Notes: generated by a model not told the origin, from the letters alone. 64,000 bases of DNA from Bacillota bacterium (GCA_017443515.1 JAFRXM010000024.1:12031-76030), one strand, 5' to 3'; shown: positions 7,544-59,919, numbered from the stretch's first letter. Made by a program: numbers and translations.

Positions 7544-7568
7544 GTGGAGAAGAACCGTCCCTCTCCAC
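7544..7568 (-). repeat. loop-conserved hairpin repeat, GTGGAGA-stem class (copy A)
   Basis: GTGGAGA-AGAACCGTCCC-TCTCCAC. It lies 9 nt downstream of the purO stop. It is the exact reverse complement of copy F (45694-45718). Confidence 0.9.
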
Positions 7569-7577
7569 TAATCTCCA

Positions 7578-8207
7578 CTAATCTCCGAGGTGTTTGTTGT
7601 AGAGGGTCACTTCGCCGGCCACGTAGGCGTAGAAGGACACTTTGTTGTCGGCGTTGAGAGCCTCCCAGACCTCGTCCGGGGTGGGAAGGTCGACTTCTAT
7701 AGGCTCGCCCGCGAAGCTTGGCAGCGGGCTGCCGTCGCCCTGGTAGGTGCTGATGAAGTAGCCCTTGCCTTTTTCCGCGCCTTCGTAGCAGAAGAACTCG
7801 CGCAGGCAGGTGCCGTTTAAGTGCTTGAGTATGGAAATGTCGAAGCTTCCGTCGTTGTAGATCATGGCGGAGATGCGCGGGGTGAAGTTCGGTTCGTCCG
7901 GCTCGTACTCGCGGGTCATGAGCGCCTTCTTGAAGCATCCCATCTCAGCTATGGTATCTGTCTGGTTGCCGTTTGTTACGATGAGGCCTTTGTCGGTCTT
8001 TCTTACCGGATGGTAGATGATGAGGCTGGGGTCAGCGACCTTGCTCTCGTCGAACGCGCGGGTCTCAATGCCGTCTTCGGTGAGCGCGAAGATGCGGTTG
8101 CGGCTGTTCTCGGAGCGGCCCATTATCCAGTAATAGGCGACATTCTTTCCGATGACTATGCCCCTGCCGGGGTAGCTTGTCTTTTTAAGGAATTTGATCA
8201 GATCCAT
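7578..8207 (-). CDS. purO: IMP cyclohydrolase, PurO-like
   Basis: MDLIKFLKKTSYPGRGIVIGK...YWIMGRSENSRNR resembles archaeal-type IMP cyclohydrolase. An AAGGAG RBS lies 7 nt before this ATG. Confidence 0.7.
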   Translation of the reverse strand: MDLIKFLKKTSYPGRGIVIGKNVAYYWIMGRSENSRNRIFALTEDGIETRAFDESKVADPSLIIYHPVRKTDKGLIVTNGNQTDTIAEMGCFKKALMTREYEPDEPNFTPRISAMIYNDGSFDISILKHLNGTCLREFFCYEGAEKGKGYFISTYQGDGSPLPSFAGEPIEVDLPTPDEVWEALNADNKVSFYAYVAGEVTLYNKHLGD

Positions 8208-8240
8208 GTTACTCTCCTTTAACACTGTATATCATTGGTT

Positions 8241-8852
8241 TTAAGACTTTATTATGCTGCTGCTGACGAGCTCTGCGGCCTGCGGAAGTATTATCCACTC
8301 GGCCTGCTCCATGACGCGCCTCTGCAGCACTTCGGGGGTGTCCCCGTCTTCTATATTGACCGCCTTTTGAAGTATTATGCGTCCGCCGTCGGGGATCTCG
8401 TTTACGAAATGCACCGTAGCGCCGGTGACCTTTACGCCGTACTCAAGCGCTCTTTCGTGCACTGTAAGGCCGTAGAAGCCCTCGCCGCAAAAGCTCGGGA
8501 TCAGCGACGGATGCACGTTTATGATGCGCTCCGGCCACTTCGATGTGAAGTCACCGCTGAGTATCGCAAGGAATCCGGCCAGGACTATAAGGTCTATCTT
8601 TTCAGCCGTAAGCAGCTCTTCTAAGGCCTTTTCGAAGCCCTCTTTCCCGCCGCATTCTCTGCGTGTGAGCGTTACAGCTTTGATGCCGGCCTTAGCCGCC
8701 CTTTCAAGAGCGTAGGCTCCGGCCTTGTTCGAGACCACAAGCACTATCTCGCCGCTATGGATGATGCCCGAATCCTGCGCGTCTATCAGCGCCTGGAGGT
8801 TGGTGCCGCCACCCGATACGAGCACCGCTATGCGGGCTTTTTTTTCATTCAT
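8241..8852 (-). CDS. purN: phosphoribosylglycinamide formyltransferase
   Basis: MNEKKARIAVLVSGGGTNLQALID...NVHPSLIPSFCG...TVHFV. The upstream 16 codons of the ORF-track call run through repeat copy B. Confidence 0.85.
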   Translation of the reverse strand: MNEKKARIAVLVSGGGTNLQALIDAQDSGIIHSGEIVLVVSNKAGAYALERAAKAGIKAVTLTRRECGGKEGFEKALEELLTAEKIDLIVLAGFLAILSGDFTSKWPERIINVHPSLIPSFCGEGFYGLTVHERALEYGVKVTGATVHFVNEIPDGGRIILQKAVNIEDGDTPEVLQRRVMEQAEWIILPQAAELVSSSIIKS

Positions 8853-8874
8853 GATCACACCGTCCTGTCTTATG

Positions 8875-8900
8875 GTGACAGAGAACCGTCCCCATGTCAC
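8875..8900 (-). repeat. loop-conserved hairpin repeat, GTGACA-stem class (copy B)
   Basis: GTGACA-GAGAACCGTCCCCA-TGTCAC. The purM stop codon (TGA, 8897-8899) is the TGA inside the RNA-sense stem GUGACA. Confidence 0.9.
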
Positions 8901-9937
8901 TCTATTACGATCTTGTCTTCGCCGTTGATTATGCTGCCGATGATGTAGGCGTCTTCGCCGTTTTTATGGAGCACTTCGAGGGCTTTCTCAGCATCAGCTT
9001 TTGCCACGACAACGCTCATGCCAACGCCCATGTTGTAGGTGTTGAACATGTCGCGCTCGGGGATGCTGCCACGCTCCTGCAGCAGGCTGAAGATGGCCGG
9101 GATCTTTACGGAAGCCCTGTCCACTTTTGCGCACAGGCCATCGGGGATAGCCCTTGGGATGTTCTCGTAGAATCCGCCGCCCGTGATATGGCTGATGCCT
9201 TTTACGTCCGCGGCTTCAAGAAGAGCCAGGACCGGTTTTACATATATTCTGGTGGGAGTGAGAAGCGCTTCTCCTATGGTCTTTCCGCCGAGCTCTTCGG
9301 GCTTTGCGTCAAGATCTGCGGTCTCGATGTCGAACACCTTGCGGACCAGCGAATAACCGTTGGAGTGTATGCCGCTGGAAGGAAGCGCTATGATAACGTC
9401 GCCCTCCTCCATGCGGGTGTTGTCCACCAGCTTTTTCTTATCGACTATGCCCACGGAAAAGCCCGCCAGGTCGTAATCGTCGGGACGCATGACGCCCGGG
9501 TGCTCTGCGGTCTCGCCGCCTATAAGAGCGCAGCCCGCCTGAACGCAGCCCTCGGCCACGCCTTTTACAAGTTCCGCTACCTTTTCAGGCTCGTTCTTTC
9601 CTATGGCTATGTAGTCCAGGAAGAATATGGGCTTTGCGCCGCAGCAGATGATATCGTTCACGCACATCGCTACGCAGTCTATGCCCACAGTATCGTGTTT
9701 ATCCAGGATCTGCGCTATGCGCTGCTTGGTGCCAACGCCGTCGGTGCCGGACACCAGTATGGGCTCTTCCATGCCCTTGATATCGGGGGCGAACAGGCCG
9801 CCGAAGCCTCCTATGCCGGAGACCACGCCGGGGATATTGGTGCGCTCCACGTAGGGCTTCATGAGTTTTACGCCCTTGTAGCCGGCTTCGATATCAACGC
9901 CGGCAGCCGCGTAAGATCCGGAATGTGATTTTTGCAT
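8897..9937 (-). CDS. purM: phosphoribosylformylglycinamidine cyclo-ligase
   Basis: 346 aa: [13 protein letters not shown]...GIGGFGGLF...[10 protein letters not shown]...[10 protein letters not shown]. Confidence 0.9.
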
Positions 9938-11367: not shown

Positions 11368-12053
11368 TACGCGAAGAAGAGCTTGGAGAGAGTCATCGGG
11401 TCGATATACTCGCCGTTCTTGTAGACGCGCATATTTCCAGAGGCGATCTCGTCGATCAGCATTACTTCGCCGTCAGCGTCGTAGCCGTACTCGAACTTGA
11501 TGTCGTAGAGCACCATGCCGCGCTTTTCCATCTCGTCAGCGACGATCTTTGTGATCTTCTGGGTCATTTCCTTGATGTCGTCGTACTGCTTCGGGGTCAT
11601 GATGCCGAGGATCTCGAGGCAGTCCTTTGTTACGAGGGGATCGCCCTTCTCGTCGTTTTTAAAGGTCATCTCAACGTATGCGGGGAGGTCCTGGCCAAGC
11701 TCGCAGTATTCGCCGTAGCGGCGGAAGAAGCTGCCTACTGCCTTGTGACGGCAGATGACTTCAAGACCGTGTCCGAACACCTTTGCAGGAAGAACTTCCA
11801 TGGTGGTGTCTTCGAAGTTAGCCTTTACGAAATGAGTCCTGATGCCTGCCTCGTTAATGATCTTGAAGAAGTAGTCAGTCATGCGGAGGTTGACGTCGCC
11901 GACGCCTTCGATGGTGAGGCCTACGGTGTTCATGCCGGGGTCGAACACACCGTCTGCTCCGGTGCAGTCATCCTTGAACTTCAGAAGGTAGTGGCCGTTG
12001 GGCATTTCATAAACGTTCTTGGTCTTTCCTGTGTAAACGAGCTTGTTTTCCAT
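11367..12053 (-). CDS. purC: SAICAR synthase
   Basis: 228 aa: [12 protein letters not shown]...LKFKDDCTG...[11 protein letters not shown]...MLIDEI. Confidence 0.9.
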
Positions 12054-12129
12054 TGTTTTTCTCCTTTATTGCGTTTGGCCTTTGGGGCCGTAAATTATTG
12101 ACTGTTTTGTGAGAGGACTGCGGGAAAGG

Positions 12130-12612
12130 CTACAGCTGAAGAGCCGCGTCTTTTCCGAGGACCTTTTCGGAGTCCGCCCTGCGCTTTGCGTCCAGCTTTT
12201 CGGCAAGCTCCGCGTCTTCTACGGCTATGATCTGAGCCGCAAGAAGCGCCGCGTTTCCGCCGCCGTCTATAGCGACTGTAGCTACGGGTATGCCTGTTGG
12301 CATCTGCACTGTCGCAAGAAGCGCGTCTATGCCTGCGAGAGCTCCGGACTTGCAGGGGATGCCTATGACAGGTATCGTGGTGTTTGCCGCGATAGCTCCG
12401 GCAAGGTGCGCTGCCATGCCCGCCATGGCTATGATGGCGCCGAAGCCGTTCTTTCTGGCATTGAGGGAAAAGTCCCTTGCCTCCACAGGCGTTCTGTGCG
12501 CCGAATAGACGTGCACTTCGTAGGGAACGCCGAGGCTTTTGAGCATATCTACAGCCTTCTGCGCTACGGGAAGATCGCTGTCGCTTCCCATTATTATTCC
12601 GACCTTTTTCAT
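12130..12612 (-). CDS. purE: 5-(carboxyamino)imidazole ribonucleotide mutase
   Basis: MKKVGIIMGSDSDLPV...AHRTP...AGMAAHLAG...IGIP. An AAGGAGG RBS precedes this ATG. Confidence 0.9.
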   Translation of the reverse strand: MKKVGIIMGSDSDLPVAQKAVDMLKSLGVPYEVHVYSAHRTPVEARDFSLNARKNGFGAIIAMAGMAAHLAGAIAANTTIPVIGIPCKSGALAGIDALLATVQMPTGIPVATVAIDGGGNAALLAAQIIAVEDAELAEKLDAKRRADSEKVLGKDAALQL

Positions 12613-12674: not shown

Positions 12675-12740
12675 ATCGTTCGTCAAAATCGGACCGTTTT
12701 AAGGGCCTTATCGTTTAATGTTCTTGTTGTATCGAACGAT
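12675..12740. promoter_or_regulatory. inverted CGAAC-core repeat upstream of the pur promoter (PurBox-like)
   Basis: ATCGTTCG (12675-12682) and CGAACGAT (12733-12740) form 8-bp inverted arms. Each carries the CGAAC core of PurR PurBoxes. They lie directly upstream of the -35. Confidence 0.3.
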
Positions 12741-12780
12741 TTTTTTAATATTCGCTGAAAACATTCAATCGATTCCACCC

Positions 12781-12835: not shown

Positions 12836-13513
12836 TCAGTTTGAAGAAGGTATTGAAGCCGCTATGGCGTTGACCAGATTCGTGAACGAAATTGTCTGGA
12901 GGACCACCTTGCCCGGCCCTGTGATAACGGTGTTGAACAGGCCTTCGCCGCCGAACAGTATGTTCTTGGCGCCCTTTACCGCAACAACGTCCATGCTGCA
13001 GGTACCGTCCATTGCGGCAAGCGTACCGGTGTCGACCACGAGCTGCTCGCCTTCACCGAGCTCATACGTAACGGCGGAACCATCCACCTCTATGAACACC
13101 TTGCCCTGTCCGGTGACCTTCTGCATTATGAAACCTTCGCCGCCGAAGAATCCGACCATGCCTTTCTTCTGAAGATACGTGGAAAGCTGCACTCCGCTCT
13201 CGGAAGCAAGGAACGCCCTCTTCTGAAGCACTATGGGCTGCTCCGGCGTGACATCCAGAGCTATTATCTGGCCGGGAAAGCTTGGCGCGAAAGCTATCAT
13301 GCCCTCTCCTTTGGCTGTATAGATGTTCTGGAAGATCCTCTCGCCCGAGAACATGCGGCCAAGAGCCTTACCGAGGCTTCCGCCTCCGTCGGTACGCATA
13401 TCCATGTTGGGGCTCATCCACGCCATGCCGCCGCCCTGGGTGATCATGGACTCTCCGTCCTCAAGATGGCAGATGACTACAGGCGCGTTTTCTCCGGTGA
13501 TCTCGTATCTCAT
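12836..13513 (-). CDS. AIM24/TIGR00266-family protein
   Basis: MRYEITGENAPVVICHLEDGESMITQGGGMAWMSPNMDM...GEGFIMQKVTGQGKVFI. This is my recognition of the DUF124/AIM24 pattern. Confidence 0.6.
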   Translation of the reverse strand: MRYEITGENAPVVICHLEDGESMITQGGGMAWMSPNMDMRTDGGGSLGKALGRMFSGERIFQNIYTAKGEGMIAFAPSFPGQIIALDVTPEQPIVLQKRAFLASESGVQLSTYLQKKGMVGFFGGEGFIMQKVTGQGKVFIEVDGSAVTYELGEGEQLVVDTGTLAAMDGTCSMDVVAVKGAKNILFGGEGLFNTVITGPGKVVLQTISFTNLVNAIAASIPSSN

Positions 13514-50968: not shown

Positions 50969-50988
50969 CTCCTGTGCTTGATTTAGAG

Positions 50989-51320: not shown

Positions 51321-51360
51321 CTTTTACTCAAAATGTGGTATAAAGAAAGGAGGAAGTACG

Positions 51361-51594
51361 ATGAAAAGAGGTCTGTTTATGGAATATCTTGTGACCCTTA
51401 CATGGGATCCCGAAGCTGCAGTATGGATCGCGACAAGCGCTGACATCCCCGGACTGGTACTCGAGGATTCATCTTTTGATGCCCTCATCGAAAAGGTTCA
51501 GGCAGCTGTACCGGAACTGATAGAGCTCAACAGCCTTCCGCAAGGCAAGACCATACGCTACAGCCCGAAACAGTTTCAGCGTGCGTGCCCCTGA
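51361..51594 (+). CDS. hicB: HicB-type (DUF1902-like) antitoxin
   Basis: A GGAGG RBS is present. MKRGLFMEYLVTLTWDPEAAVWIATSADIPGLVLEDSSFDALIEKVQAAVPELIELN. The stop overlaps the hicA ATG (TGATG). Confidence 0.65.
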   Translation: MKRGLFMEYLVTLTWDPEAAVWIATSADIPGLVLEDSSFDALIEKVQAAVPELIELNSLPQGKTIRYSPKQFQRACP

Positions 51595-51788
51595 TGGCGG
51601 AATACGAAAACAGAGTCCGCGAGACACTCAGCAGCTACGGCTGCTTTTTTATTAGGCACGGTAGAGGTGACCATGACATCTGGTACAGTCCGATCTCTGA
51701 AAGAAATGTTACAGTTCCTGCGAAGATCAAGTCCAGGCACACCGCGAATGCTGTACTGAAGCAATGCGGGATAAAGGAAAAGTATTGA
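51594..51788 (+). CDS. hicA: HicA-family mRNA interferase toxin
   Basis: FFIRHGRGDHDIWYSPISERNVTVPAKIKSRHTANAVLKQCGI matches the HicA/YcfA pattern (G.H..W......VP......AN.ILKQAG). Confidence 0.7.
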   Translation: MAEYENRVRETLSSYGCFFIRHGRGDHDIWYSPISERNVTVPAKIKSRHTANAVLKQCGIKEKY

Positions 51789-51850
51789 GAAACACGCCCT
51801 GAAGATTTATCATGAAATTAGTAATAGTATACAATCGTTATTGGGGGCAC

Positions 51851-52519
51851 ATGAAGCTTTCATCTTTCCTGCACTTTGCAGGCTTTGGCATAAAGACCAT
51901 ACTGTTTAAGAAGAAGGATCCACTCCTGGGGACGGTAATCGTCACCGACAGGTGCAATCTGCACTGCAAACACTGTTCCGTCAACAACATCACCGCTGTC
52001 ATGCATCCGTACAAACAGCTGCGCAGCGAGATGCAGCAGCTCTACGATATGGGAGTCAGGATCCTGTTTTTCTGCGGCGGCGAAACTTTTCTCTGGCAGG
52101 ACGGTGAGCTTACGATAAAAGACCTGGTCGCAGAAGCTAAACGAATGGGCTTCCTGATCGTAAACGTGGTTACGAACGGCACCTTCCCGATCGACCTTCC
52201 GGAGGCGGATCTGATACTCCTGAGCCTGGACGGAGACCGGCAGCGACACAACGAGATCCGCGGCGACACCTACGACACCATCATGGAGAATATCCGCAAC
52301 GCCACAGCGGACAACATCTGCCTCTACATGGCGGTCAACCAGATCAATAAGGACTGCATACAGCACGTGTGCCGGACAGCCCGCGACACAAAGAATATCC
52401 GTGCGGTGTCCTTCAATTTCCACACGCCTTATCCGGACACCCGCAAGCTTGCGCTCAGCCGGGACGAAAAGGCTGCCTGCTGCGCTGAGATCACCCGGAT
52501 GATGAATGTACGGTCTTGA
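51851..52519 (+). CDS. radical SAM protein, probably C-terminally truncated
   Basis: TDRCNLHCKHCSV is a CxxxCxxC motif. Also FFCGGETFL and LLSLDGDRQRHNEIRG. At 222 aa it is shorter than relatives with this layout, as I recall them. Confidence 0.6.
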   Translation: MKLSSFLHFAGFGIKTILFKKKDPLLGTVIVTDRCNLHCKHCSVNNITAVMHPYKQLRSEMQQLYDMGVRILFFCGGETFLWQDGELTIKDLVAEAKRMGFLIVNVVTNGTFPIDLPEADLILLSLDGDRQRHNEIRGDTYDTIMENIRNATADNICLYMAVNQINKDCIQHVCRTARDTKNIRAVSFNFHTPYPDTRKLALSRDEKAACCAEITRMMNVRS

Positions 52520-52694
52520 GCTTTGGCTCGCAGAGCGTTTTGGATGGGTAAACAAAAGCGGCGGCACCTACGAGCTTACGCTGAAAGGCGCCTACCACTA
52601 TCACTACTATGAAAACTTTTATACACTGGCCTACATCGATAAAATGTGGGGCATCATGCGTAGGGAAGCGTTCCCGGAACGTATTAAACTATAA
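52506..52694 (+). CDS. 62-aa ORF, possible gene fragment
   Basis: MYGLELWLAERFGWVNKSGGTYELTLKGAYHYHYYENFYTLAYIDKMW... It overlaps the preceding stop in another frame. An in-frame TGA lies directly upstream, so it is not a simple frameshift continuation. Confidence 0.25.
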   Translation: MYGLELWLAERFGWVNKSGGTYELTLKGAYHYHYYENFYTLAYIDKMWGIMRREAFPERIKL

Positions 52695-52719
52695 AAAACC
52701 GGGGATAACCCCGGTTTCT
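52693..52719. terminator. bidirectional intrinsic terminator
   Basis: AAAAAACCGGGG-ATAA-CCCCGGTTTCT lies between convergent genes. Confidence 0.7.
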
Positions 52720-53455
52720 ATTCTTTCACGAACCAGATCCAGGTTCCGTGGTCTTTGCTGAACACTGCCAGCGCGTTCTCGTACTCGAATCGAAAAATGA
52801 AATGCCCGGTCTGATAGTAATTGGTGTAATCGATGCCGTCAGCCTTGGTGCCGGTGTATTTCTCAAATGTTTCCCAGCTGCCGTCAGCGCCTAAGTACCC
52901 AAGCATATACTCACAATACTCGCCCGAGCCGCTTATCCTGATCCTGCTGCCGGACACAGTTGCCTCAACAGCGCTGCCATTTATAAGCTGCGGATCGTCG
53001 TAGGTATAAATGCTGTATGTCTGGGTCTCGGAACTGATCTCGTAAACAAATGCATCTTCCGGCGCCGCAGGCTCTGACCCGTCAGGGCCATTTACCTTAT
53101 AGAACAGATAGCCGGTAGCCTGCCGCTGATCCATCTCCGTGACCTTATAGTATTCTGTTTCATCCGACGAATCATAAGATACGACATAGGTCCATTTGTA
53201 GGGATCAGCTTCGTACCATTTGGTTTCTATCCTGGTAATATCCTTTATCCGGACGTGCTTTTCATAATCGTTTCCGTATTTTAACCTGGTCTGCTCTGTT
53301 ATCTGGTGCTTCAACTGGCCTGCAAAATCCGCAAGCTTTATACGCTTTGCCTCCGACGAATACACTCTGCCATAGGTAAAGCAAGCATAGAAACCAACAG
53401 CCAGAACGACTATGACCAGAAGAATGATCTTTAGAGTTCTATGCATCCCCATCAC
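52718..53455 (-). CDS. membrane-anchored hypothetical protein
   Basis: 245 aa. It has an N-terminal helix (LKIILLVIVVLAVGFYACF) and no motif that I recognise. Confidence 0.45.
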   Translation of the reverse strand: MMGMHRTLKIILLVIVVLAVGFYACFTYGRVYSSEAKRIKLADFAGQLKHQITEQTRLKYGNDYEKHVRIKDITRIETKWYEADPYKWTYVVSYDSSDETEYYKVTEMDQRQATGYLFYKVNGPDGSEPAAPEDAFVYEISSETQTYSIYTYDDPQLINGSAVEATVSGSRIRISGSGEYCEYMLGYLGADGSWETFEKYTGTKADGIDYTNYYQTGHFIFRFEYENALAVFSKDHGTWIWFVKE

Positions 53456-53473
53456 CCCCTTTTCTGAGGTGCG

Positions 53474-53947
53474 CTACAAAAGCTCCTTTATCTTTGCTTC
53501 TATGCGCTCCGGGGTGACGGTGGAGGCGTAGCGCTCCACGACCTTGCCTTCGCGGTCCAGCAGGAACTTGGTGAAGTTCCACTTGATATTGCTGTTAAGC
53601 ACGCCGCCCTTCTGGCTCTTGAGCCAGGTGTAGAGCGGAGCTTCACCCGGGCCGTTTACCTCTATCTTTGAGAACTGCCTGAAGCTCACGCCGAAGTTGA
53701 TGGCGCAGAATTCCGTGATCTGCGCGTCGGTGCCGGGAGCCTGGTTCCCGAACTGGTTGCAGGGGAAATCCAGGATCTCAAGGCCCTGATCTTTGTACTT
53801 TTCGTAGAGGTCCTCGAGCCCGTTGTACTGCGGGGTAAAGCCGCAGCCGGTGGCGGTGTTGACGATAAGCAGCACCTTGCCCTTATAATCCGCCAGGGAA
53901 ATATCCTGCCCTCCGGCATCCTTCATCGTGAAATCGTATACTGTCAT
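53474..53947 (-). CDS. glutathione peroxidase-family peroxidase
   Basis: LLIVNTATGCGFTPQY...FPCNQFGNQAPG...WNFTKFL. Confidence 0.85.
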   Translation of the reverse strand: MTVYDFTMKDAGGQDISLADYKGKVLLIVNTATGCGFTPQYNGLEDLYEKYKDQGLEILDFPCNQFGNQAPGTDAQITEFCAINFGVSFRQFSKIEVNGPGEAPLYTWLKSQKGGVLNSNIKWNFTKFLLDREGKVVERYASTVTPERIEAKIKELL

Positions 53948-53968
53948 GGTCTTTCCTCCCCGCCCTTG

Positions 53969-54898
53969 CTACGCCTGGCCCGCCGATTCTATATATTTTT
54001 CCGCAGCCACAGCCGCTACCGCGCCGTCGGAGACCGCCGTTACGACCTGCCTTAAGCTCTTTACGCGCACATCGCCCGCGGCAAACACTCCCGGAACGGA
54101 GGTGCGCATCTCGCTGTCAGTTGCGATAAAGCCCCGTTCCATGTCGAGCAGCCCTTCGAACACGGCGGTGTTGGGCTTAAGCCCCACGAACACGAACAGC
54201 CCGAACCTGCCGCTGACCCTTACCCTGCTGCCGTCCGCGACGTTTTTGAGTATCATGGACTGCAGGTAGCCGTCGCCCGACATAGACTCTACGGTGGTGT
54301 TCCACTTGAAGGCTATCTTGCTGTTGGCGAAGGCTTTTTCCTGGATGGACTTTGCCGCCCTGAGAGAATCGCGCCTGTGTATGATAGTGACTTTTGAAGC
54401 GAACTTCGTAAGGTAGATCGCCTCCTCCACCGCAGCGTCGCCGCCGCCCACCACGTATACCGGAAGGCCTTCGAAGAACGGACCGTCGCAGGTGGCGCAG
54501 TAGGAAACGCCGGCCCCCGCAAGCTCTTCTTCGCCGGGGCAGCCTATCTTAGCCTGGTGCGTGCCGGTTGCTATGATAACAGCCTTTGCCTTGTATTCCG
54601 CGCTTCCGCAGCGGATGACCTTAGGATCCTGGTCCAGGACGAAGGAATCTGCGCTGCCTTTGGCAAATTCGGCACCGAAACTTCTGGCCTGCTCCGCCAT
54701 CCTGCCGGTAAGGGCGTGCCCGGACTCCTCAGGGAAGGACCCGGGGTAATTTGCTATCTCGGAGGTGGTGAGTATCTGGCCGCCTTCAGTGTCGGCCTCA
54801 AGCACCAGGGTCTTAAGCTTTGCCCGCCCTGCGTACAGTGCTGCAGAAAGCCCCGCGGGGCCTGCTCCTATTATAACAACGTCGTAAATGGTATCCAT
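53969..54898 (-). CDS. trxB: thioredoxin-disulfide reductase
   Basis: DVVIIGAGPAGLSAALYAGR...CATCDGPFF...VVGGGDAAVEEA...FAAGDV. Confidence 0.9.
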   Translation of the reverse strand: MDTIYDVVIIGAGPAGLSAALYAGRAKLKTLVLEADTEGGQILTTSEIANYPGSFPEESGHALTGRMAEQARSFGAEFAKGSADSFVLDQDPKVIRCGSAEYKAKAVIIATGTHQAKIGCPGEEELAGAGVSYCATCDGPFFEGLPVYVVGGGDAAVEEAIYLTKFASKVTIIHRRDSLRAAKSIQEKAFANSKIAFKWNTTVESMSGDGYLQSMILKNVADGSRVRVSGRFGLFVFVGLKPNTAVFEGLLDMERGFIATDSEMRTSVPGVFAAGDVRVKSLRQVVTAVSDGAVAAVAAEKYIESAGQA

Positions 54899-55055
54899 AT
54901 GCGGCTCCTTTAAACTTATTTTTTATTATACTACCTGAAAGCCCCCTGTTCAAACAGTTATGCTCTGTATATCAACAAGTTGTTTCCGCGGCGGAAAAGA
55001 TGTATACTATACGCGACGGCATAAACTGTTCAATTAAGAAACGGAGATAATAGAA

Positions 55056-56168
55056 ATGGAAGAAACAAGACCCTTTTTAGACTGGAAACTGGCGCACGAT
55101 TTTATGGTCGATGTATTCGTAAAGTACGGCGTACCCAGAGAAGACGCGGAGATCTGCACGGACGTTCTTCTTGAGAGCGACCGCCGCGGCATCGAGAGCC
55201 ACGGATGCAACCGCTTCAAGCCGATCTACCTGGACCGCATAAAGAAAGGCACGCTGCTGCCTGTCACCAAGATCGACATCGTAAAGGAGACCCCGACGAC
55301 TGTCGTCATGGACGCCAACAACGGCATGGGCATGGTAGCAAGCTATAAGATGATGGAGATGCTGATCGAGAAGGCAAAGACCTACGGCATGGCCGGCGGC
55401 ACCATCATGAACTCCACCCACTACGGCATAGCCGGCTATTGGACCACGATGGCTGAAAAGGCCGGAATGATAGGCATCAGCGGCACCAACGCAAGGCCTT
55501 CTGTTGCGCCTACGTTCGGCGTAGAGCCCATGATGGGGACCAACCCGATGACGTTTACGATGCCCACCGACGAGCCTTTCCCGTTCAACCTGGACTGCGC
55601 GACCTGCATAGTGCAAAACGGCAAGATAGAATTCTACGCAAGGCAGGGAAAACCCACGCCCGAAGGCTGCGTAATAAGCGAGACCGGCGAGACCATGACC
55701 GAATCCGCCAAGATACTTAAGGATATGCGCGCAGGACACGCCGCGCTGCTGCCGCTTGGCGGCCCCGGCGAGGACACCGCAGGCTACAAGGGCTACGGAT
55801 ACACCACGGTAGTCGAGATCCTTTCCGCCGCTCTGGCAGGAGGCCCGTTCCTTAAGGCTCTGTCCGGCGTAGCCGAAGACGGAAGCCCGCAGATGTACAG
55901 GCTGGGACACTTCTTCTTCGTCATCAACCCCGAGTTCTTCATGGGGCTTGATACATTCAAAAAGACCGCCGGCGAGATCTGCCGCGGCCTTAGGAACTCG
56001 AAGAAGGCGCCGGGAGCCGAGCGCATCTACACCGCAGGCGAGAAGGCCTACGAGAACTGGCAGTTCCGCAAGGACAAGGGCGTGCCCGTCGGCGAAGCCA
56101 TCCAGAAGGAATTCATCCAGCTGCGCGACGAATGCGGCCTCACCCAGTATCACTTCCCGTTCGAATAA
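55056..56168 (+). CDS. Ldh2-family (malate/L-lactate/ureidoglycolate dehydrogenase-type) oxidoreductase
   Basis: 370 aa: ESDRRGIESHGCNRF...GTNPMTF..P...ALLPLGG...GYKGYG. Confidence 0.7.
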   Translation: MEETRPFLDWKLAHDFMVDVFVKYGVPREDAEICTDVLLESDRRGIESHGCNRFKPIYLDRIKKGTLLPVTKIDIVKETPTTVVMDANNGMGMVASYKMMEMLIEKAKTYGMAGGTIMNSTHYGIAGYWTTMAEKAGMIGISGTNARPSVAPTFGVEPMMGTNPMTFTMPTDEPFPFNLDCATCIVQNGKIEFYARQGKPTPEGCVISETGETMTESAKILKDMRAGHAALLPLGGPGEDTAGYKGYGYTTVVEILSAALAGGPFLKALSGVAEDGSPQMYRLGHFFFVINPEFFMGLDTFKKTAGEICRGLRNSKKAPGAERIYTAGEKAYENWQFRKDKGVPVGEAIQKEFIQLRDECGLTQYHFPFE

Positions 56169-56177
56169 AAAAAATAT

Positions 56178-56204
56178 GGTGGAGAGGGACGGTTCCTCTC
56201 CACC
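56178..56204 (+). repeat. loop-conserved hairpin repeat, GGTGGAG-stem class (copy K), terminator-like
   Basis: GGTGGAGAG-GGACGGTTC-CTCTCCACC has a 9-bp stem flanked by an A-tract and TTTTTTATT. It lies 9 nt after the plus-strand gene's stop and 4 nt after the minus-strand gene's stop. Confidence 0.9.
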
Positions 56205-56208
56205 TTTT

Positions 56209-57150
56209 TTATTCTGCCATCAAGTGCATGGCGCGAAGCTGCGGGTCGGCGATGCGGCTCTGCACTTCCTCCGCGTGCTGCAAAAGAAAATCTGAAGGGG
56301 AGGCCGAAAGGCCTTCCTTTTTCAGTTCGGCTATCACATCGGCGCTGATGGATTCGATGATGTCCACCTTCTCGTGGAAGGACGCCGGCGCGCAATCTTT
56401 AGCGTCCGAAAGAAGCTCTATCTGCGGAGCGATCTTTCCGCCAAGGACCGGCAGCTGCTTCATGGCCCTGTGAGCCCACTTGTAGTACGGACGGTAGCGC
56501 TTGTTCAGCAGGAACACTATAGCCTGCACGTGGTCCACGAACTCGGCGCAGGCAAGGAACGCCGCCACGAACTCGCCGCGGTGCGCGCACCTTGCGTAGT
56601 TGTACTGCCCGGACTGAGCCGCCATAGCGCAGCGCATCGCAAGCTTTTTGAGGCGCAGGTCCTCGGGATAAAATGCCAGAAGCCCCTCGCGGATGTCCGA
56701 GAACTCCTTGTTGTTGTTGAGGAACAGCTCGCCGTTGGTGGCCACGGCAAAGCCCTTTTCCGCCGCGCAGCGCCATTCGAAAATGCTCTGTGGAACCCGG
56801 TCGAAGCCGGTGTACCTGGCGTAGAAACTGCCGCTGCTCATGACGCCTACGCGCCCGCCGGTCTGGGCCGACACGTTGAGCCTGCGAAAGCCCATGTAGC
56901 TTTCCGGAAGCACGTTGTATATGCCAGAAGCCAGCCCGCCGAACTCCTGCATGTCGGCGTCGGTGAGCCACACGCAAAAGCCCGGGCCCCAGTCGTGGTC
57001 GCGGGATATCTCGTCGTCAAAGCCGTAGCACTCCGAGCCTTCGCCGACAAGGCCAACCGTGGCCTTTTCAAGCACCTGCGGGCAGCTCTTCTCGAAGGCC
57101 GGGCGGCCCACTTCTTCCCAGTATTTCCTTGAAAGTTCAAGTCCCTTCAT
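56209..57150 (-). CDS. nucleotidyltransferase-fold protein (DUF4037-like)
   Basis: Pol-beta-type motif: GLVGEGSECYGFDDEISRDHDWG. The C-terminal half is helical. The DUF assignment is from memory. Confidence 0.45.
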   Translation of the reverse strand: MKGLELSRKYWEEVGRPAFEKSCPQVLEKATVGLVGEGSECYGFDDEISRDHDWGPGFCVWLTDADMQEFGGLASGIYNVLPESYMGFRRLNVSAQTGGRVGVMSSGSFYARYTGFDRVPQSIFEWRCAAEKGFAVATNGELFLNNNKEFSDIREGLLAFYPEDLRLKKLAMRCAMAAQSGQYNYARCAHRGEFVAAFLACAEFVDHVQAIVFLLNKRYRPYYKWAHRAMKQLPVLGGKIAPQIELLSDAKDCAPASFHEKVDIIESISADVIAELKKEGLSASPSDFLLQHAEEVQSRIADPQLRAMHLMAE

Positions 57151-57164
57151 TTCAGTTCCTTTCT

Positions 57165-57190
57165 GTGACAGAGAACCGTCCCCCTGTCAT
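57165..57190 (-). repeat. loop-conserved hairpin repeat, GTGACAG-stem class (copy L)
   Basis: GTGACAG-AGAACCGTCCCC-CTGTCAT. The TPR gene's stop (57187-57189) is the TGA of the stem. Confidence 0.9.
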
Positions 57191-57993
57191 ATCTTTGATT
57201 CTGCTTCTTTGAGGTTGCGGGCTGTGGCGACGTACTCGCGGTGCTCTTTGTTGTAGTAGCGCTCGCAGTATACCAGAGCCGAGCGGAACCAGTCCGCGGC
57301 TTCTTTAAACCTTCCGGTAGCCATGCAAACAAGCCCCAGGCTGTTCAGGATCGCGTGGTAGTGCGGCGTGAACGTGTCGCAGAGCCTGTTCTCGTAGACG
57401 TCCTTTGCCTCAAGCAGGTTCTTCTCGGCGTCTTCGTAGCGCTCAAGCTGCCTGTAGAGCTCTGCGGTATTCGTAAGCGAAGTAGCGTACTCGTCAAGGT
57501 GCTCCGGAAGCTCCGCCAAAATGTCCGAAGCCTCTTTAAGGTACGCCGCTGCTCTGTCTGTCTGACCCTTATCCAGCGCCACGAGCGCCACGTTGTTGAG
57601 CCCCGCCGAATACAGTATGTGATGCCGTCCCACGGTGTTCTCGTAGATCCTGAGGCACTCCGCGAAGCCCTCCTCAGCCTTGTCGAACTCGCGCATCTGG
57701 CGGTAAGACCCGGCGCGGTTGTTCACGCAGGTAGCGTAGTCCGGAGACATCGGCCCGTTCAGAGCCTTAAGGATCTCCGCCGCCTTAGTAAAACACGCCA
57801 CGGACTCGTCGTACCTTGTAAGCCCGCGGTAAAACCCGCCCAGCTCCGAAAGCATCGAAGCGTAGATGGCACTGCCCTCCCCTTCGTTTTCCTTCGCAAG
57901 CTCGCAGGCACGCTTTATCTCGGACTCTATGATCTGGTTGTCCTCCGTCCCGTAGGACTTATCCACTATGCTGAAATAATCCCTGATATCCAT
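57187..57993 (-). CDS. tetratricopeptide-repeat protein
   Basis: 268 aa. It has repeated about 40-aa A/Y/L-rich helical pairs (e.g. ATCVNNRAGSYRQMREFDKAEEGFAECLRIYE). Confidence 0.6.
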   Translation of the reverse strand: MDIRDYFSIVDKSYGTEDNQIIESEIKRACELAKENEGEGSAIYASMLSELGGFYRGLTRYDESVACFTKAAEILKALNGPMSPDYATCVNNRAGSYRQMREFDKAEEGFAECLRIYENTVGRHHILYSAGLNNVALVALDKGQTDRAAAYLKEASDILAELPEHLDEYATSLTNTAELYRQLERYEDAEKNLLEAKDVYENRLCDTFTPHYHAILNSLGLVCMATGRFKEAADWFRSALVYCERYYNKEHREYVATARNLKEAESKI

Positions 57994-58061
57994 AGCTGAC
58001 CTCGTATATATTGTCCAAAAAAATCAATCGGTATCATCCTCTTTTTGTACATTCTATCATT

Positions 58062-58089
58062 TTACAATTCGCTCCTCAACTGATATAAT
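58062..58089 (+). promoter_or_regulatory. candidate promoter of the activase gene
   Basis: TTACAA (58062-58067), a 16-nt spacer, then TATAAT (58084-58089). Confidence 0.4.
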
Positions 58090-58129
58090 CATAATGCAAA
58101 GTGGTTTTTTAAGTGACTAAGGAGAGAAT

Positions 58130-59080
58130 ATGAGTTTCGAAGTAAATTACGATGTTACCTGTCCGGTATTCAACATCCAGACCTACAGCATTCACGACGG
58201 CCCCGGCATCCGCACAACAGTCTTCGTAAAAGGCTGCCCGCTGCGCTGCCTGTGGTGCGCAAACCCCGAATCCAACCTGGCAAAGCCTCAGCTTATGACT
58301 TACTCCAGCAAGTGCACAGGCTGCGGACAGTGCCTGCCCAAGTGCCCCAAGGGCGCCATCTCCATAGGCCCCTACGGCGAAGGCGAGAGCCTCAAATATA
58401 TCGCTATCACAGACCGCACCAAGTGCGTGGACTGCGGCGCCTGCGTAAAGGTCTGCCCGGCTGAAGCCCGCGAGATCGCAGGAAAGACCATGACAGTCCG
58501 CGAAGTCATCGATAAAGTCAAGAAGGACAAGCTCTTCTACGACGGTTCCGGCGGCGGCATGACGGTCTCCGGCGGCGAGCCTCTTGCTCACCCGGATTTC
58601 GTGGCCAACCTCATGGCAGCGGCTCACGCAGAAGGCATCACCACCTGCATCGAGACCAGTTCGTTCGGATCCCGCGAGGCAGTCGACAAGATCTACCCGC
58701 ACGTAGACCTGGCCCTTCTGGACGTAAAGCACATGGACAACACCACCCACGAAAAGCTCACCGGCGTGCCCAACACCTACATCCTTGAGAACATCAGGCA
58801 CATCGCGCTGGATCTTAAGGTGCCCGTCATCATCCGCGTCCCGACCATGCCCGGCTATAACGACAGCCCGGAGAACATAATCGCGACAGCCAAGTTTGCC
58901 CAGACCCTGGGCGATAACGTCCTGGTGAACCTGCTGCCCGCCCACAAGCTCGGCGAAAGCAAGAACGAGAGCCTCGGCATCGCAAACAGGTGCACCATCA
59001 CAGTGCCAACCGACGAATACATGCAGAGCCTCAAGAAGCTGGTGGAAGAAGCCGGCTCCCCCTGCAAGATCGGCGGCTAA
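58130..59080 (+). CDS. glycyl-radical enzyme activating protein (long, two-ferredoxin-motif type)
   Basis: IHDGPGIRTTVFVKGCPLRCLWCANPE, plus CTGCGQCLPKCP and CVDCGACVKVCP, plus VSGGEPL. Confidence 0.85.
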   Translation: MSFEVNYDVTCPVFNIQTYSIHDGPGIRTTVFVKGCPLRCLWCANPESNLAKPQLMTYSSKCTGCGQCLPKCPKGAISIGPYGEGESLKYIAITDRTKCVDCGACVKVCPAEAREIAGKTMTVREVIDKVKKDKLFYDGSGGGMTVSGGEPLAHPDFVANLMAAAHAEGITTCIETSSFGSREAVDKIYPHVDLALLDVKHMDNTTHEKLTGVPNTYILENIRHIALDLKVPVIIRVPTMPGYNDSPENIIATAKFAQTLGDNVLVNLLPAHKLGESKNESLGIANRCTITVPTDEYMQSLKKLVEEAGSPCKIGG

Positions 59081-59125
59081 GCCCGGACTAAAAAGCCTCC
59101 GGCTCAACTGAAAGGAGAACAGACA

Positions 59126-59809
59126 ATGGATAAGAAAGCTTTAATAGAAGAGATCGTAAAGAAAGAATGGCCGATGTTCCACAACGTCAACGGCGAAGAC
59201 CGCGTAGACTGCCAGGAAGACCCGACCACCTTCTACAACATGCGCACAGCCCAGTTCGATGTCTGGAACGAAGACGCGCTCGAAAGCTACAACAAGGATC
59301 TTGACGCCGCCATCGAGGCAGGCCGCAGCCTTGTAAAGGAAAAGTACATCTGGATGATGGAACACACCGATCCTAAGGGCTTTGAGGCATTCAAGGGCCT
59401 CCTGCCGGAAGTTTCCGAAAAGACGAACGCTCTCGTGGCCGACATCTGGAAGATCATGCTTGAGCAGACCGAAGAGCTCCGCAAGACCTACCCGCTTCTG
59501 GCTCTGGGCGGTCGCCCGCTGCACGCTTCCGAAGAGAAGGAATGGGCCTCCATCGAGACCTACCAGACCAGCGAGCTGCGCACCTTCTCCGAAGCCACAC
59601 TGGAAAAGCTCCTCGCCCACATCAAGGCCATGAAGGAAGCCGGAGAAGACTTCGTCTACAAGATCCAGGAAAACTCCGTCACCTGCCTTGGCTACAAGGA
59701 CATGAAGGAAGCTGAGATCGCCATGATGGGCCAGCTCATGAACGAGATGGGCATCACCGTCGAGGCCGACTGCCCCTCCTGCATGAAGGGATTCGACGAC
59801 GCAGAATAA
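59126..59809 (+). CDS. DUF4125-like protein, function unknown
   Basis: 227 aa, acidic and helical. MDKKALIEEIVKKEWPMFHNVNGEDRVDCQEDPTTF... The family is assigned from memory. Confidence 0.4.
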   Translation: MDKKALIEEIVKKEWPMFHNVNGEDRVDCQEDPTTFYNMRTAQFDVWNEDALESYNKDLDAAIEAGRSLVKEKYIWMMEHTDPKGFEAFKGLLPEVSEKTNALVADIWKIMLEQTEELRKTYPLLALGGRPLHASEEKEWASIETYQTSELRTFSEATLEKLLAHIKAMKEAGEDFVYKIQENSVTCLGYKDMKEAEIAMMGQLMNEMGITVEADCPSCMKGFDDAE

Positions 59810-59810
59810 C

Positions 59811-59837
59811 GGTGGAGAGGGACGGTTCTCCTCCACC
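59811..59837 (+). repeat. loop-conserved hairpin repeat, GGTGGAG-stem class (copy M)
   Basis: GGTGGAGAGGGACGGTTCTCCTCCACC. It starts 1 nt after the stop of the plus-strand gene. Confidence 0.9.
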
Positions 59838-59859
59838 AAACATCCAATCATACCAAATC

Positions 59860-59892
59860 AAAATGGCTCGGATCCTTGTCCGGGCCATTTTT
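59860..59892. terminator. bidirectional intrinsic terminator bracketed by repeats M and N
   Basis: AAAATGGCTCGGA-TCCTTG-TCCGGGCCATTTTT. Confidence 0.65.
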
Positions 59893-59919
59893 GGTGGAGG
59901 AGAACCGTCCCTCTCCACC
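59893..59919 (-). repeat. loop-conserved hairpin repeat, GGTGGAG-stem class (copy N)
   Basis: GGTGGAGGAGAACCGTCCCTCTCCACC. It is the exact reverse complement of M. It ends 3 nt before the stop of the minus-strand gene. Confidence 0.9.

Follow-up and report, generated by a model that had tools for sequence, protein, structure and literature searches.

The hairpin repeats that are found at high density in the window (the whole stretch of Bacillota DNA that was analysed, 64,000 nucleotides) are most probably non-autonomous, REP-like copies of the repeats at both ends of a small mobile element, the RAYT-family transposase gene of which lies outside the window. The conserved determinant of the system sits in the tip of the hairpin and not in a GTAG foot. 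We observed an association of fixed orientation between repeat and gene, covariation of the hairpin arms, presence or absence of the copies among related species, and deletion derivatives bounded by the hairpin feet. Since the repeats are associated with a gene and the protein is of the RAYT type, the system is REP/RAYT-like ("TIRtron/TIRYT").

Copies of the core motif in the window

The core GGGACGGTTC(T/C), i.e. GGGACGGTTCY, has 16 exact matches in the window compared to 0.08 expected, a number attained in none of 100 shuffles of the window. All 16 copies of the original prediction were thus recovered at their positions, at a density of 1 per 4 kb, while its count of 13 loci was corrected to 12, or to 14 when the members of the two wide pairs are taken separately. 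Fifteen copies are intergenic and one lies in frame within a gene. No decayed copies beyond the 16 were found in the window with one mismatch allowed, and the 27 matches with two mismatches, 16 of which are the real copies, are at chance level (about 15 expected).

Two stem types and one long inverted repeat occur in the window. Type A is GTGACAnG...CTGTCAC and type B is GGTGGAGA...yCTCCACC, as in the two classes described originally (GTGACAG...CTGTCAC and GGTGGAG...CTCCACC). The third version, described as having a 25-bp stem, corresponds to the inverted repeat at 31217-31277, where the core belongs to the arm. The copies are as follows:

7544-7568 (feature 7544-7588), minus strand: single type-B hairpin, GTGGAGA / GGGACGGTTCT / TCTCCAC, between the IMP cyclohydrolase and purH genes
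8875-8900, minus strand: single type-A hairpin, GTGACAT G GGGACGGTTCT CTGTCAC, between purM and purN
18909-18934, minus strand: single type-A hairpin, between the transketolase C-terminal subunit and ABC ATPase genes
31217-31277, no strand assigned: long inverted repeat with 25-bp arms, two inward-facing cores each extended by GGATTTTCATTTTG, 11-nt spacer, between convergent genes
35833-35887, no strand assigned: head-to-head dimer of two type-A units 1 nt apart (REPIN-like), between divergent CoA-transferase and TetR genes
45694-45718, plus strand: single type-B hairpin 5' of a TetR gene, in antisense to the genes on either side
46318-46343, minus strand: single type-A hairpin, directly 3' of the stop codon of the peptidase M29 gene
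48920-48945, plus strand: type-A unit within ORF 48453-48974 (minus strand), in its N-terminal region and in frame
50766-50792, plus strand: type-B hairpin; with 50907-50933 it forms an inward-facing pair, of which it is the left one, in the spacer that separates the genes for the SCIFF peptide and its radical-SAM maturase
50907-50933, minus strand: type-B hairpin, right member of this pair, 114 nt from the left member
56178-56204, plus strand: type-B hairpin between convergent genes, core variant GGGACGGTTCC, with an A-run on one side and a T-run on the other
57165-57190, minus strand: single type-A hairpin, whose arm ATGACAG includes the TGA at which the upstream TPR gene ends
59811-59837, plus strand: type-B hairpin between convergent genes, forming the left half of an inward-facing pair
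59893-59919, minus strand: type-B hairpin, right member of this pair, the 55-nt spacer of which contains an ordinary hairpin

The core had been taken for the loop of the hairpin. It does form the hairpin tip, but it is not fully unpaired: in both RNA and DNA folding 3-4 weak pairs were added to the stem (GGGA with UCUC or UUCU), and 4-8 nt remained as the loop. Though quasi-palindromic (GGAC-G-GTTC), the core is strictly asymmetric in all copies. When the window was searched with the stems only, no copy with another loop was found, save one chance match at 53520. The inverted repeat at 31217-31277 and the dimer at 35833-35887 had folding energies of -46.6 kcal/mol (z -11) and -57.2 kcal/mol (z -9.6), respectively.

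Single copies are often directly 3' of the stop codon of the upstream gene. Seven of the window's single copies have co-directional genes around them, and five of the seven are in the sense orientation relative to the neighbouring genes, as are 7 of 9 non-RAYT copies in L211; two single copies in the window are antisense. The copy within ORF 48453-48974 encodes VTENRPLVT, and this ORF has a strong AGGAGG-ATG start. The intrinsic terminator pattern (a G+C-rich hairpin followed by a T-run) was shown only by 56178-56204 in a scan of 45000-61000. Examination of the flanks of all 16 copies revealed a T-run directly after the stem only at this same copy, the sole one of the 16 to match the pattern.

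Hairpin arms and tip across genomes

The 11-nt core is shared by many genomes of Bacillota, and some MAGs from other phyla have it too. The stems around it differ between genomes and pair, with the exception of some subfamilies with non-pairing arms, e.g. TTATAG...CCTTCAC in RUG13409 and in an Anaerovoracaceae MAG, and a hairpin is therefore not strictly required. At least 33 arm types were distinguished by the innermost 6 bp. In 90 sequences, 74.9 % of the arm cells were paired compared to 45 % after shuffling, two-sided changes were seen at all nine arm pairs, and the covariation score was 0.73, compared to 0.23 after shuffling (0.73 was reached by 0 of 500 shuffles), while slid controls gave 0.08-0.24. 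Of the copies, 69 % formed stems of at least 5 bp, compared to 10 % in a permuted control. The conserved tip with compensated stem changes, predicted from the window, thus holds far beyond it.

Outside the core no column reached 90 % conservation, the arms started with many different sequences, and no conserved 5' GT[AG]G tetranucleotide was found at the hairpin foot. Between strains that are 97 % identical the arms were altered and the core unaltered. Among the arm mismatches beyond the first pair, 34 were G-T and 51 A-C, without strand asymmetry. On a phage-like contig two copies are located directly 3' of stop codons, one of them followed by a T-run.

Association with a transposase gene

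No transposase gene is present within the 64-kb window. A look for RAYT/IS200-type TnpA genes had been suggested, and a RAYT-type gene flanked by cores was indeed found in other genomes. In a DNA-first search the ORFs near cores were clustered, and one recurrent protein emerged, the gene of which was bracketed by inverted cores in four unrelated genomes: a Clostridiales MAG (L017), a Bacteroidales MAG (L081), a Clostridia MAG (L090) and a Desulfosporosinus isolate (L106).

In a protein-first test, 79 metagenome loci were selected on protein similarity alone, and cores were sought within 300 nt with at most one mismatch. The upstream flank carried the core in the plus orientation in 29 of 70 cases and in the minus orientation in one, while the downstream flank carried it in the minus orientation in 28 of 69 cases and in the plus orientation in one; the chance level was 0.0024 per flank. 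Many core-less loci with both flanks readable have inverted repeats with related GGGGAC motifs. In sister loci the motif reads GGGGACAG, GGGGACGT or GGGGACGGGG. The core was invariant among proteins sharing just 35-45 % identity. The type of core followed protein similarity weakly, being the same in 54 of 65 nearest neighbours, with a mean protein identity of 42.7 % within core types compared to 40.0 % between them.

By way of protein homologues, the same layout and dense dispersed copies were found in three of three further genomes, with 5 copies per ~20 kb in a Methylomusa-like assembly, 12 in a Pelotomaculum propionicicum assembly and 8 in a Maledivibacter halophilus isolate. At the Maledivibacter locus there are three 275-bp internal-deletion derivatives of the full element, the homology of which is bounded at both ends by the hairpin feet. 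MITEs are short, have no coding sequence, carry their parent's terminal inverted repeats and are flanked by a target-site duplication. The three elements are clear deletion derivatives; no target duplication was seen at them, and a Y1 enzyme is expected to leave none. The inverted repeat at 31217-31277 of the window has the same end orientation as the transposase element and looks like an end-to-end, MITE-like deletion derivative; its inner arm sequence had no match among the other loci compared.

At roughly 15 of 21 loci, as read by eye, a -35-like hexamer (TTGACA, TTGACT or TTGTCA) falls on the right arm of the hairpin that precedes the transposase gene, with a TATAAT-like box ~17 nt further on.

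The flanked protein has ~265 amino acids (260-290) and consists of an N-terminal Y1/HUH domain (Pfam Y1_Tnp, E 4e-17 to 7e-8) and a C-terminal helical extension of ~120 amino acids, with modelled helices at 220-281. Three motifs are invariant, YHVMxRG, CLMDNHxH and RYIHxNP. In 54 homologues the catalytic HUH and Tyr residues do not vary, which indicates selection as an active nuclease and not merely as a binder. The protein scored 60-80 bits with the NCBIfam model REP_Tyr_transpos (NF047646), i.e. at or just below the cut-off of 80, and 16 bits with the IS200 model (NF033573), the cut-off of which is 55. The sole match in a PDB sequence search was 4ER8 (E. coli TnpA-REP), which was also the top fold match of the AlphaFold model (pLDDT 85) with E 2.8e-7 and TM 0.73, while IS200/IS605-type folds matched with E of about 1e-3. 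The Pfam matches of the C-terminal part were all under the cut-offs (HTH_23 in 12 of 54 members, HTH_28 in 3 of 54), with weak Sigma70_r4 similarity in addition; Bac_DnaA_C was not among the 25 families listed for the members.

Presence of the hairpins in relatives

A comparison of filled and empty sites had been proposed. The pur-operon sites of the hairpins are empty in relatives, that at 8875-8900 in L123 and L124, and such empty operon junctions in close relatives fit insertion better than a regulatory site under conservation. At 97 % identity, the strain L126 has GTGACAG...CTGTCAT at the counterpart of 8875-8900, with an identical core. In the window, the 5' arm at 7544-7588 carries a 10-nt tandem duplication (GGAGATTAGT twice), with the TAG stop of the upstream gene inside the duplicated arm segment; in L126 the segment is single and the TAG stop directly abuts the arm. 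The copy at 46318-46343 was found also in L001 and L002, and the same hairpin sites were recovered in independent samples and strains. Cultured isolates bearing the core are Desulfosporosinus SRJS8, Thermotalea metallivorans and Maledivibacter halophilus. Several of the non-Bacillota matches are MAGs, in which binning errors are possible. One scaffold is broken by an N-gap at a repeat.

Alternative explanations

The position of the single copies, often in sense orientation directly past a stop codon, would also suit hairpins that are primarily functional mRNA elements, such as stabilisers of 3' ends, signals for processing or termination, or sites that present their loop to an RNA-binding protein, with the tip kept by selection and the transposase link secondary. 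The two copies of the phage-like contig, one with its T-run, are in accordance with this, as are the G-U pairs that lengthen the stem on the GGGAC strand in RNA folding and the copy at 56178, which is compatible with a bidirectional terminator. We regard such a role as the primary one as quite improbable. Rfam gave no match to the hairpins even with E up to 10, only a lysine riboswitch was found in the whole window at gathering thresholds, and a permissive scan of 50700-51000 resulted in sub-threshold noise only. A T-tract is present at just one of the 16 copies, two single copies are antisense and one lies within a coding sequence, and G-T mismatches in the arms are not favoured over A-C. The element is missing from the same operon junctions in close relatives, which fits insertion, and nothing at the RNA level would account for its fixed, inward-facing placement on both sides of a transposase gene. 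The hairpins are most likely no novel type of RNA or regulatory signal. The original prediction left open whether the tip would be recognised by a protein or an RNA; a protein reading the tip is the best reading, and nothing points to an RNA family, in view of the lack of an Rfam match, the lack of strand asymmetry of mismatches and the single terminator-like copy.

Such a protein could in principle bind the core as duplex DNA, either through the C-terminal HTH or as a host regulator, in which case the copies would be scattered modules with operator or promoter function, and the symmetry of the arms would be incidental. The weak HTH_23, Sigma70_r4 and HTH_28 similarity of the C-terminal domain and the quasi-palindromic core are in favour of this, and binding at the -35-like right arm upstream of the transposase gene could autoregulate the gene. 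However, the core is asymmetric in every copy, whereas a dimeric duplex binder would accept either half-site, and complementary arms of free sequence are the signature of a folded single strand. Together with the invariant catalytic residues of the 54 homologues and the hairpin-bounded deletion derivatives, which point to transposition, this renders a duplex site unlikely. That the pattern arose by chance or as a technical artefact (assembly, adapters, contamination) might be suspected from the possible binning errors and the N-gap mentioned above, but it is refuted by the present data, and its probability is negligible: 16 copies far exceed the 0.08 expected, the same sites recur in independent samples and strains, the cultured isolates carry the element, and the copies sit among ordinary genes with genome-specific arms.

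Proposed mechanism and comparison with known systems

Under the preferred explanation, i.e. REP-like copies of a mobile element, the full element would consist of one gene for a RAYT-family Y1/HUH tyrosine transposase and two inverted hairpins around it, each with arms of 6-9 bp of free sequence and a tip with the near-invariant GGGACGGTTCT. The enzyme, which we assume to be encoded elsewhere in the genome from which the window derives, may bind the folded hairpin on single-stranded DNA at replication forks, cf. E. coli TnpA-REP and IS608 TnpA. It would read the sequence of the tip, the arms being needed only for pairing. Cutting and rejoining of the DNA would then give rise to solo hairpins, dimers and mini-elements that spread intergenically, mostly just past stop codons. 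Effects on mRNA ends, or a promoter acting from the -35-like right arm, would be side effects. Points against this explanation are the lack of a transposase gene in the window, the subfamilies with non-pairing arms, the invariance of the core among proteins of 35-45 % identity together with its weak link to protein similarity, and the frequent sense orientation past stop codons, which an RNA-level role could give as well.

IS200/IS605 elements (IS608, ISDra2) share the Y1/HUH fold, sub-terminal hairpins recognised on single-stranded DNA and the lack of target-site duplication. Their end hairpins, however, have the same orientation on one strand, conserve the stem and go with a guide tetranucleotide, whereas here the ends are inverted and the tip is conserved. 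Membership in IS200/IS605 was rejected based on the inverted ends, the protein length (260-290 compared to ~130-150 amino acids for TnpA) and the low NF033573 score. In the rolling-circle origins of geminiviruses and circoviruses a nonanucleotide in the loop of a variable stem is nicked by the HUH Rep. The conserved loop sequence, the covarying stem and the HUH nuclease partner are similar, but those origins are single, located on small replicons and served by a Rep of a different HUH class.

The REP/BIME sequences and RAYTs of E. coli and Pseudomonas (REPtron; PMC3333891, PMC3479197, PMC2817692) are likewise short high-copy hairpins, mostly extragenic and often just 3' of genes, occurring as singles, inverted dimers (REPIN-like) and clusters, with inverted copies on both sides of the transposase gene and a Y1/HUH enzyme, the nearest solved structure being TnpA-REP (4ER8). 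Classical REPs have a conserved GTAG foot and stem and a variable loop, and the present design differs from them as predicted, with a conserved tip, a free stem and no GT[AG]G foot. The present protein is ~100 amino acids longer, with a C-terminal HTH-like part. Group 2 and 3 RAYTs are described as having a long vertical inheritance (PMC5581495), whereas the present core is patchy across classes and phyla, which suggests horizontal spread.

The repeats had been thought to be outside the described families. They probably belong instead to a REP/RAYT-type branch associated with terminal inverted repeats (TIRs), as presented in the text of Di Nocera 2013 (PMC3733652), where RAYT-like 'TIRYT' genes have flanking inverted repeats sharing GGGGWSAS. 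The core with its usual preceding G, GGGGACGG, agrees with this motif at 7 of 8 positions, the exception being position 7 with G in place of A. According to that text, TIRtrons also combine a RAYT-like gene with a C-terminal HTH, for which the matches here are sub-threshold, with terminal inverted repeats; some TIR families are repeated in the genome, some are self-complementary and lie in dimers or clusters, and the taxonomic spread is wide, Clostridia included. The TIR families are there called 'moderately abundant' and come from other taxa, the main text being without Clostridia or Firmicutes, whereas here one copy per 4 kb was counted in the window and as many as 12 per 20 kb in Pelotomaculum. 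Judged by shared features, the present family is probably the TIRYT branch, i.e. TnpA-Y1 subclass 2.1 (Quentin 2018, PMC6006769) or Group 1 RAYT (Bertels 2017, PMC5581495). In these reports, subclass 2.1 is the second-largest TnpA-Y1 subclass (14.9 % of strains), for which no REP-like sequence was found, and the largest RAYT group is Group 1, to which it probably corresponds. No mention of the tip-conserved, free-stem hairpin, the invariant 11-nt core or the mini-elements was found in the parts searched of the text of PMC3733652, PMC6006769 and PMC5581495.

It is conceivable, although we put this forward only tentatively, that the invariant 11-nt tip is both the recognition and the nicking substrate of this RAYT branch, a loop-read mode in place of the foot-read GTAG mode of known RAYTs, comparable to the nonanucleotide origins on which HUH Rep proteins act. 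The tip would then have been overlooked because searches were keyed on GTAG feet or on abundant 16-mers. Such a mode, if true, would explain how one element crosses classes and phyla while its arms drift freely, and why the second-largest TnpA-Y1 subclass was reported as REP-less. It would also explain how each solo copy could bring along a portable -35-like box and disperse weak promoters and stop codons.

Hairpin repeats in the window

The core GGGACGGTTCY, the near-invariant 11-nt tip of the hairpins, has 16 exact matches in the window, compared to 0.08 in dinucleotide-preserving shuffles. This equals the number of copies in the original prediction, and an exact-match search together with a check of the flanks found all of its coordinates to be correct, although the copies occupy 12 loci and not 13 as had been counted. 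Allowing one mismatch gave no extra copy in the window, and matches with two mismatches were at background level. The two stem classes that had been described, GTGACAnG/CTGTCAC and GGTGGAGA/yCTCCACC, were recovered, and a search of the window with the arms only returned no arm pair with another centre, except for one chance match in a coding region. The core lies at the hairpin centre, as had been proposed, but it is not strictly a loop, as a few weak pairs can lengthen the stem into it. The following arrangements were distinguished:

31217-31277, long inverted repeat with 25-bp arms, the core being part of the arm
35833-35887, head-to-head dimer
50766/50907, wide inward-facing pair
59811/59893, wide inward-facing pair
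48920-48945, in-frame copy inside ORF 48453-48974 (-), in the N-terminal part; the ORF has a strong AGGAGG-ATG start

The gene holding the in-frame copy belongs to the heptaprenyl diphosphate synthase component I family. The copy encodes VTENRPLVT, located before the first hydrophobic stretch, and resembles the intragenic copies reported in some REP and RPE families.

Some neighbouring features were also recorded. A gene coding for a protein with an HTH_3 and a Uma2-family putative restriction endonuclease domain (30398-31198, +) ends 19 nt before the long inverted repeat. A SCIFF peptide gene and a radical-SAM maturase gene lie at ~49374-51788, with a native hairpin and two repeat copies in their spacer, and adjoin a HicA/HicB toxin-antitoxin pair.

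At gathering thresholds, Rfam returned for the whole window a lysine riboswitch alone (RF00168, 25108-25279, -, 75.6 bits, full length) and nothing at the repeats, and with E raised to 10 there was no relevant match at the one repeat locus searched. When the core and its complement were searched in the literature as literal strings, only unrelated primer sequences were found.

Covariation of the arms

Ninety copies were aligned without gaps over 29 columns. Most of them were from protein-anchored loci, and the arms were thus not selected for pairing. At the nine symmetric arm pairs, 74.9% of the cells were standard pairs, compared to 45.3% after shuffling, and the covariation score was 0.732 compared to 0.227 in shuffles, none of 500 reaching the observed value. 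With a slid partner the score was 0.08-0.24. Changes on both sides occurred in all nine pairs, which together with the score bears out the predicted compensated replacement of the stems. Among copies with a perfect stem of at least 6 bp, at least 33 arm types were found. Beyond the first pair, G-T mismatches in the arms (34) were not in excess over A-C mismatches (51), giving no sign that one transcribed strand alone matters.

The outer arms do not pair in some subfamilies. In a TTATAG...CCTTCAC subfamily, present in the rumen Clostridiales MAG RUG13409 and an Anaerovoracaceae MAG (compared loci L006, L008, L017, L054, L101, L108 and L113), the flanks do not pair mutually; an inner AGGGGA/TCTCCT pairing is possible, and the copies form tandem arrays of two to four.

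At 7569-7588 of the window, part of the 5' arm is duplicated in tandem immediately upstream of a complete copy. Such duplications recur in many genomes (loci L013, L006, L017, L041, L042, L060, L072, L099 and L102), sometimes extending 2-7 nt into the core. A fixed cleavage point was considered and dropped, since the breakpoints vary.

A transposase gene bracketed by the repeat

When ORFs within 2.5 kb of cores were clustered across loci, one cluster stood out: a protein of 260-297 aa from four unrelated genomes, with cores on both sides every time. These cores face inward, + upstream and - downstream of the gene, the downstream one in many cases overlapping the stop codon. Pfam Y1_Tnp matches the protein, which has the invariant motifs YHVMxRG, CLMDNHxH and RYIHxNP. 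Its best NCBIfam model is the REP-associated tyrosine transposase with 60-80 bits (cut-off 80), the IS200 model giving just 16 bits, and the PDB gave a single sequence match, 4ER8, in which E. coli TnpA-REP is in complex with a REP hairpin. An AlphaFold model built with 54 homologues (mean pLDDT 85) also had 4ER8 as its best fold match (E 2.8e-7, TM 0.73 on target), followed by the IS200, ISDra2 and IS608 transposases. The C-terminal ~120 residues are helical, with weak matches to HTH_23, HTH_28 and Sigma70_r4.

The association was also tested independently, starting from the protein. Scanning metagenomes with the protein alignment gave 80 loci chosen by protein similarity alone (30-52% identity), of which one duplicate was dropped. 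Cores with at most one mismatch were called within 300 nt, the chance expectation being 0.0024 per flank. Upstream, 29 of the 70 usable flanks had a core in + orientation and one in -; downstream, 28 of the 69 usable flanks had it in - orientation and one in +. Fifty-two of the 73 flank cores were exact, and 11 of the 21 with a single mismatch differed at the last position. Many core-less loci with both flanks readable had inverted repeats with the related motifs GGGGACGGGGTTAG, GGGACGTTTC and GGGGACAGG. Conservation of the core is far higher than that of the partner proteins (35-45% identical), and core type is only loosely linked to protein similarity. A co-variation of core type with protein clade was not adopted, being weak and confounded by partial proteins.

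Homologues labelled at source as 'REP-associated tyrosine transposase' or 'RayT' were found in Sporomusa, Methylomusa, Pelotomaculum, Maledivibacter and others. Complete genomes with homologues include those of Sporomusa, Methylomusa and Formimonas. All three loci reached via such homologues had the core bracket, with 5, 12 and 8 dispersed copies in ~20 kb. Maledivibacter halophilus (locus L212) has three 275-bp internal-deletion derivatives of the full transposase element, located as follows:

11991-12260, 275-bp derivative
12978-13246, 275-bp derivative
17781-18040, 275-bp derivative

The outer feet of the two hairpins bound the homology of these derivatives on either side, with no visible target duplication. 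They retain the promoter and the first and last codons, the start codon being mutated in two of the three.

The right arm of the hairpin upstream of the transposase gene is a -35-like hexamer (TTGACA, TTGACT or TTGTCA), followed after ~17 nt by a TATAAT-like -10 in roughly 15 of 21 loci, as read by eye. Loci with such an arm include L090 (a Clostridia MAG), L210, L212, L133, L142 and L160. The overlap may explain the bias of the arms to GTCAA/TTGAC, and since the arm doubles as a -35-like hexamer, binding or folding of the left end could control the transposase gene.

Distribution and occupied sites

Species-representative genomes scanned with the core and a loose 3' pattern gave at least 111 stretches. 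Many of those listed are chance matches within genes of unrelated phyla, and dozens are clearly the same element as the window repeats. Carriers include Syntrophomonadaceae, Dethiobacteria, Pelotomaculum, Desulfosporosinus, Thermotalea, Oscillospiraceae, Lachnospiraceae and Anaerovoracaceae, as well as some MAGs labelled Bacteroidales, Desulfovibrio and Atribacterota. The arms are genome-specific, e.g. GTGTCAG/CTGACAC, GTGAAAG/CTTTCAC, GTAACAG/CTGTTAC and GCATC/GATGC. In the fetched loci the inner arm of the long inverted repeat was not found, nor was the type-B arm, one of the two stem types, in viral contigs.

The window comes from an Oscillospiraceae-related organism of the rumen metagenome, sampled in ERZ28654036 and ERZ28654098. 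The nearest named relatives of one window protein are 77% identical. A comparison of filled and empty sites in relatives, proposed with the original prediction, was made at the pur-operon. The element is absent in closer relatives of the window organism (two 84-88% and two 77% identical in the protein used), where the junctions filled in the window are empty or have just 2-5 nt, and both copies are present in a 97%-identical strain. Between the strains the arms have changed, GTGACAT/CTGTCAC compared to GTGACAG/CTGTCAT in the 97%-identical strain, the core has stayed the same, and the strains differ in a 10-nt arm duplication.

In the 97%-identical strain (L126) an N-run begins directly after the repeat at the IMP cyclohydrolase-purH junction (~2797-2848). 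In another sample an IS3-family insertion sequence that the window lacks comes next after the same peptidase M29 gene and repeat (L002, 2116-3524, corresponding to the region past window ~46106), a strain-level insertion polymorphism with no relation to the hairpin family. A low-GC phage-like contig from IMG/VR (L114) has hairpin copies at 11759-11776 and 12729-12746, reading GTGACAT GGGACGGTTCT TTGTCAC. The arm-internal TGA is the stop codon of the ORF before each of these two copies, and a T-run follows one of them.

Discussion

RAYT/REP systems are the standard example of a domesticated transposase accompanied by mini-repeats of its own. To our knowledge, such systems are known almost solely from Proteobacteria and rest on a hairpin with a GTAG foot. 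The present family has no GTAG foot, and it differs further in carrying the specific sequence in the hairpin tip, with a free stem. The data fit a system of the REP/RAYT type, with a bracketed Y1/HUH gene and solo, dimeric and mini-element hairpins scattered in intergenic DNA. Gene association, orientation, arm covariation, presence or absence of copies and deletion derivatives were all observed directly. If the enzyme resembles E. coli TnpA-REP and IS608 (PMC3333891, PMC3479197), it would act on a folded single strand, its specificity may be set by the tip sequence, and hairpin copies would be moved in trans. A profile search of all ORFs found no transposase gene in the 64-kb window, and the gene is therefore presumably elsewhere in this genome.

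The excess of copies over shuffles, and their occurrence in independent samples, in strains and in the M. halophilus isolate, exclude an artefact. Nor are the repeats a new class of regulatory RNA. It is very unlikely that the hairpins are primarily RNA-level elements in mRNAs: such a role would account for copies that follow stop codons and mostly read in sense, but not for a patchy distribution, for antisense and intragenic copies, for missing T-tracts or for the bracket around the transposase gene. That the core is an operator site in duplex DNA is unlikely, as it leaves unexplained both the free yet complementary arms and the strict asymmetry of the core, even if the HTH domain and the coincidence of the upstream right arm with the -35 box and its TATAAT-like partner agree with it; an operator role may well exist as an added layer, e.g. 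in autoregulation.

Several other candidates were rejected. Intrinsic terminators fit just one of the 16 copies. Ends of multi-site transposons (Tn7, Mu or IS21 type), suggested by the tandem arrays in L006 and L113, were discarded since housekeeping genes lie between the arrays. CsrA sites, boxA, the LexA box, parS, ECF promoters, DNA uptake sequences and CRISPR-like solitary repeats were set aside for their poor fit in sequence or spacing.

Three papers describe genes related to the REP/RAYT-type system favoured here. In that of Di Nocera et al. (PMC3733652), RAYT-like 'TIRYT' genes lie between inverted repeats sharing GGGGWSAS, some of which form moderately abundant families. The present family reads GGGGACGG, a match at seven of eight positions. 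The CGTC-tagged REPs of the same paper do not correspond to it: their loops are 4-5 nt long, they end in CGTC and no transposase is known for them, and neither Clostridia nor Firmicutes are named in the main text of the paper. Quentin et al. (PMC6006769) equate TIRYT with TnpA-Y1 subclass 2.1, whose members have an HTH at the C-terminus and for which a REP-like sequence reportedly could not be found. Bertels et al. (PMC5581495) describe a widespread Group 1, Clostridia included, with flanking 16-mers repeated only ~12 times. The present family is much denser than these TIRYT and Group 1 repeats. We infer that the partner proteins belong to subclass 2.1, the HTH-bearing RAYT-like branch. Searches that rely on GTAG or on abundant 16-mers would not pick up the repeat, with its 11-nt conserved tip and free arms.

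The motif aids the annotation of Clostridia and rumen MAGs. Short-read assemblies appear to break at such repeats, which also provide stop codons and can lie within genes in frame. The 25-nt hairpin is a directly usable substrate for the biochemistry of an unstudied enzyme class. If the proteins belong to the HTH-bearing branch, many anaerobic Bacillota carry a dense partner repeat, and a branch reported to be 'REP-less' (PMC6006769) or to have only modestly repeated TIRs (PMC3733652, PMC5581495) would gain its partner repeat.
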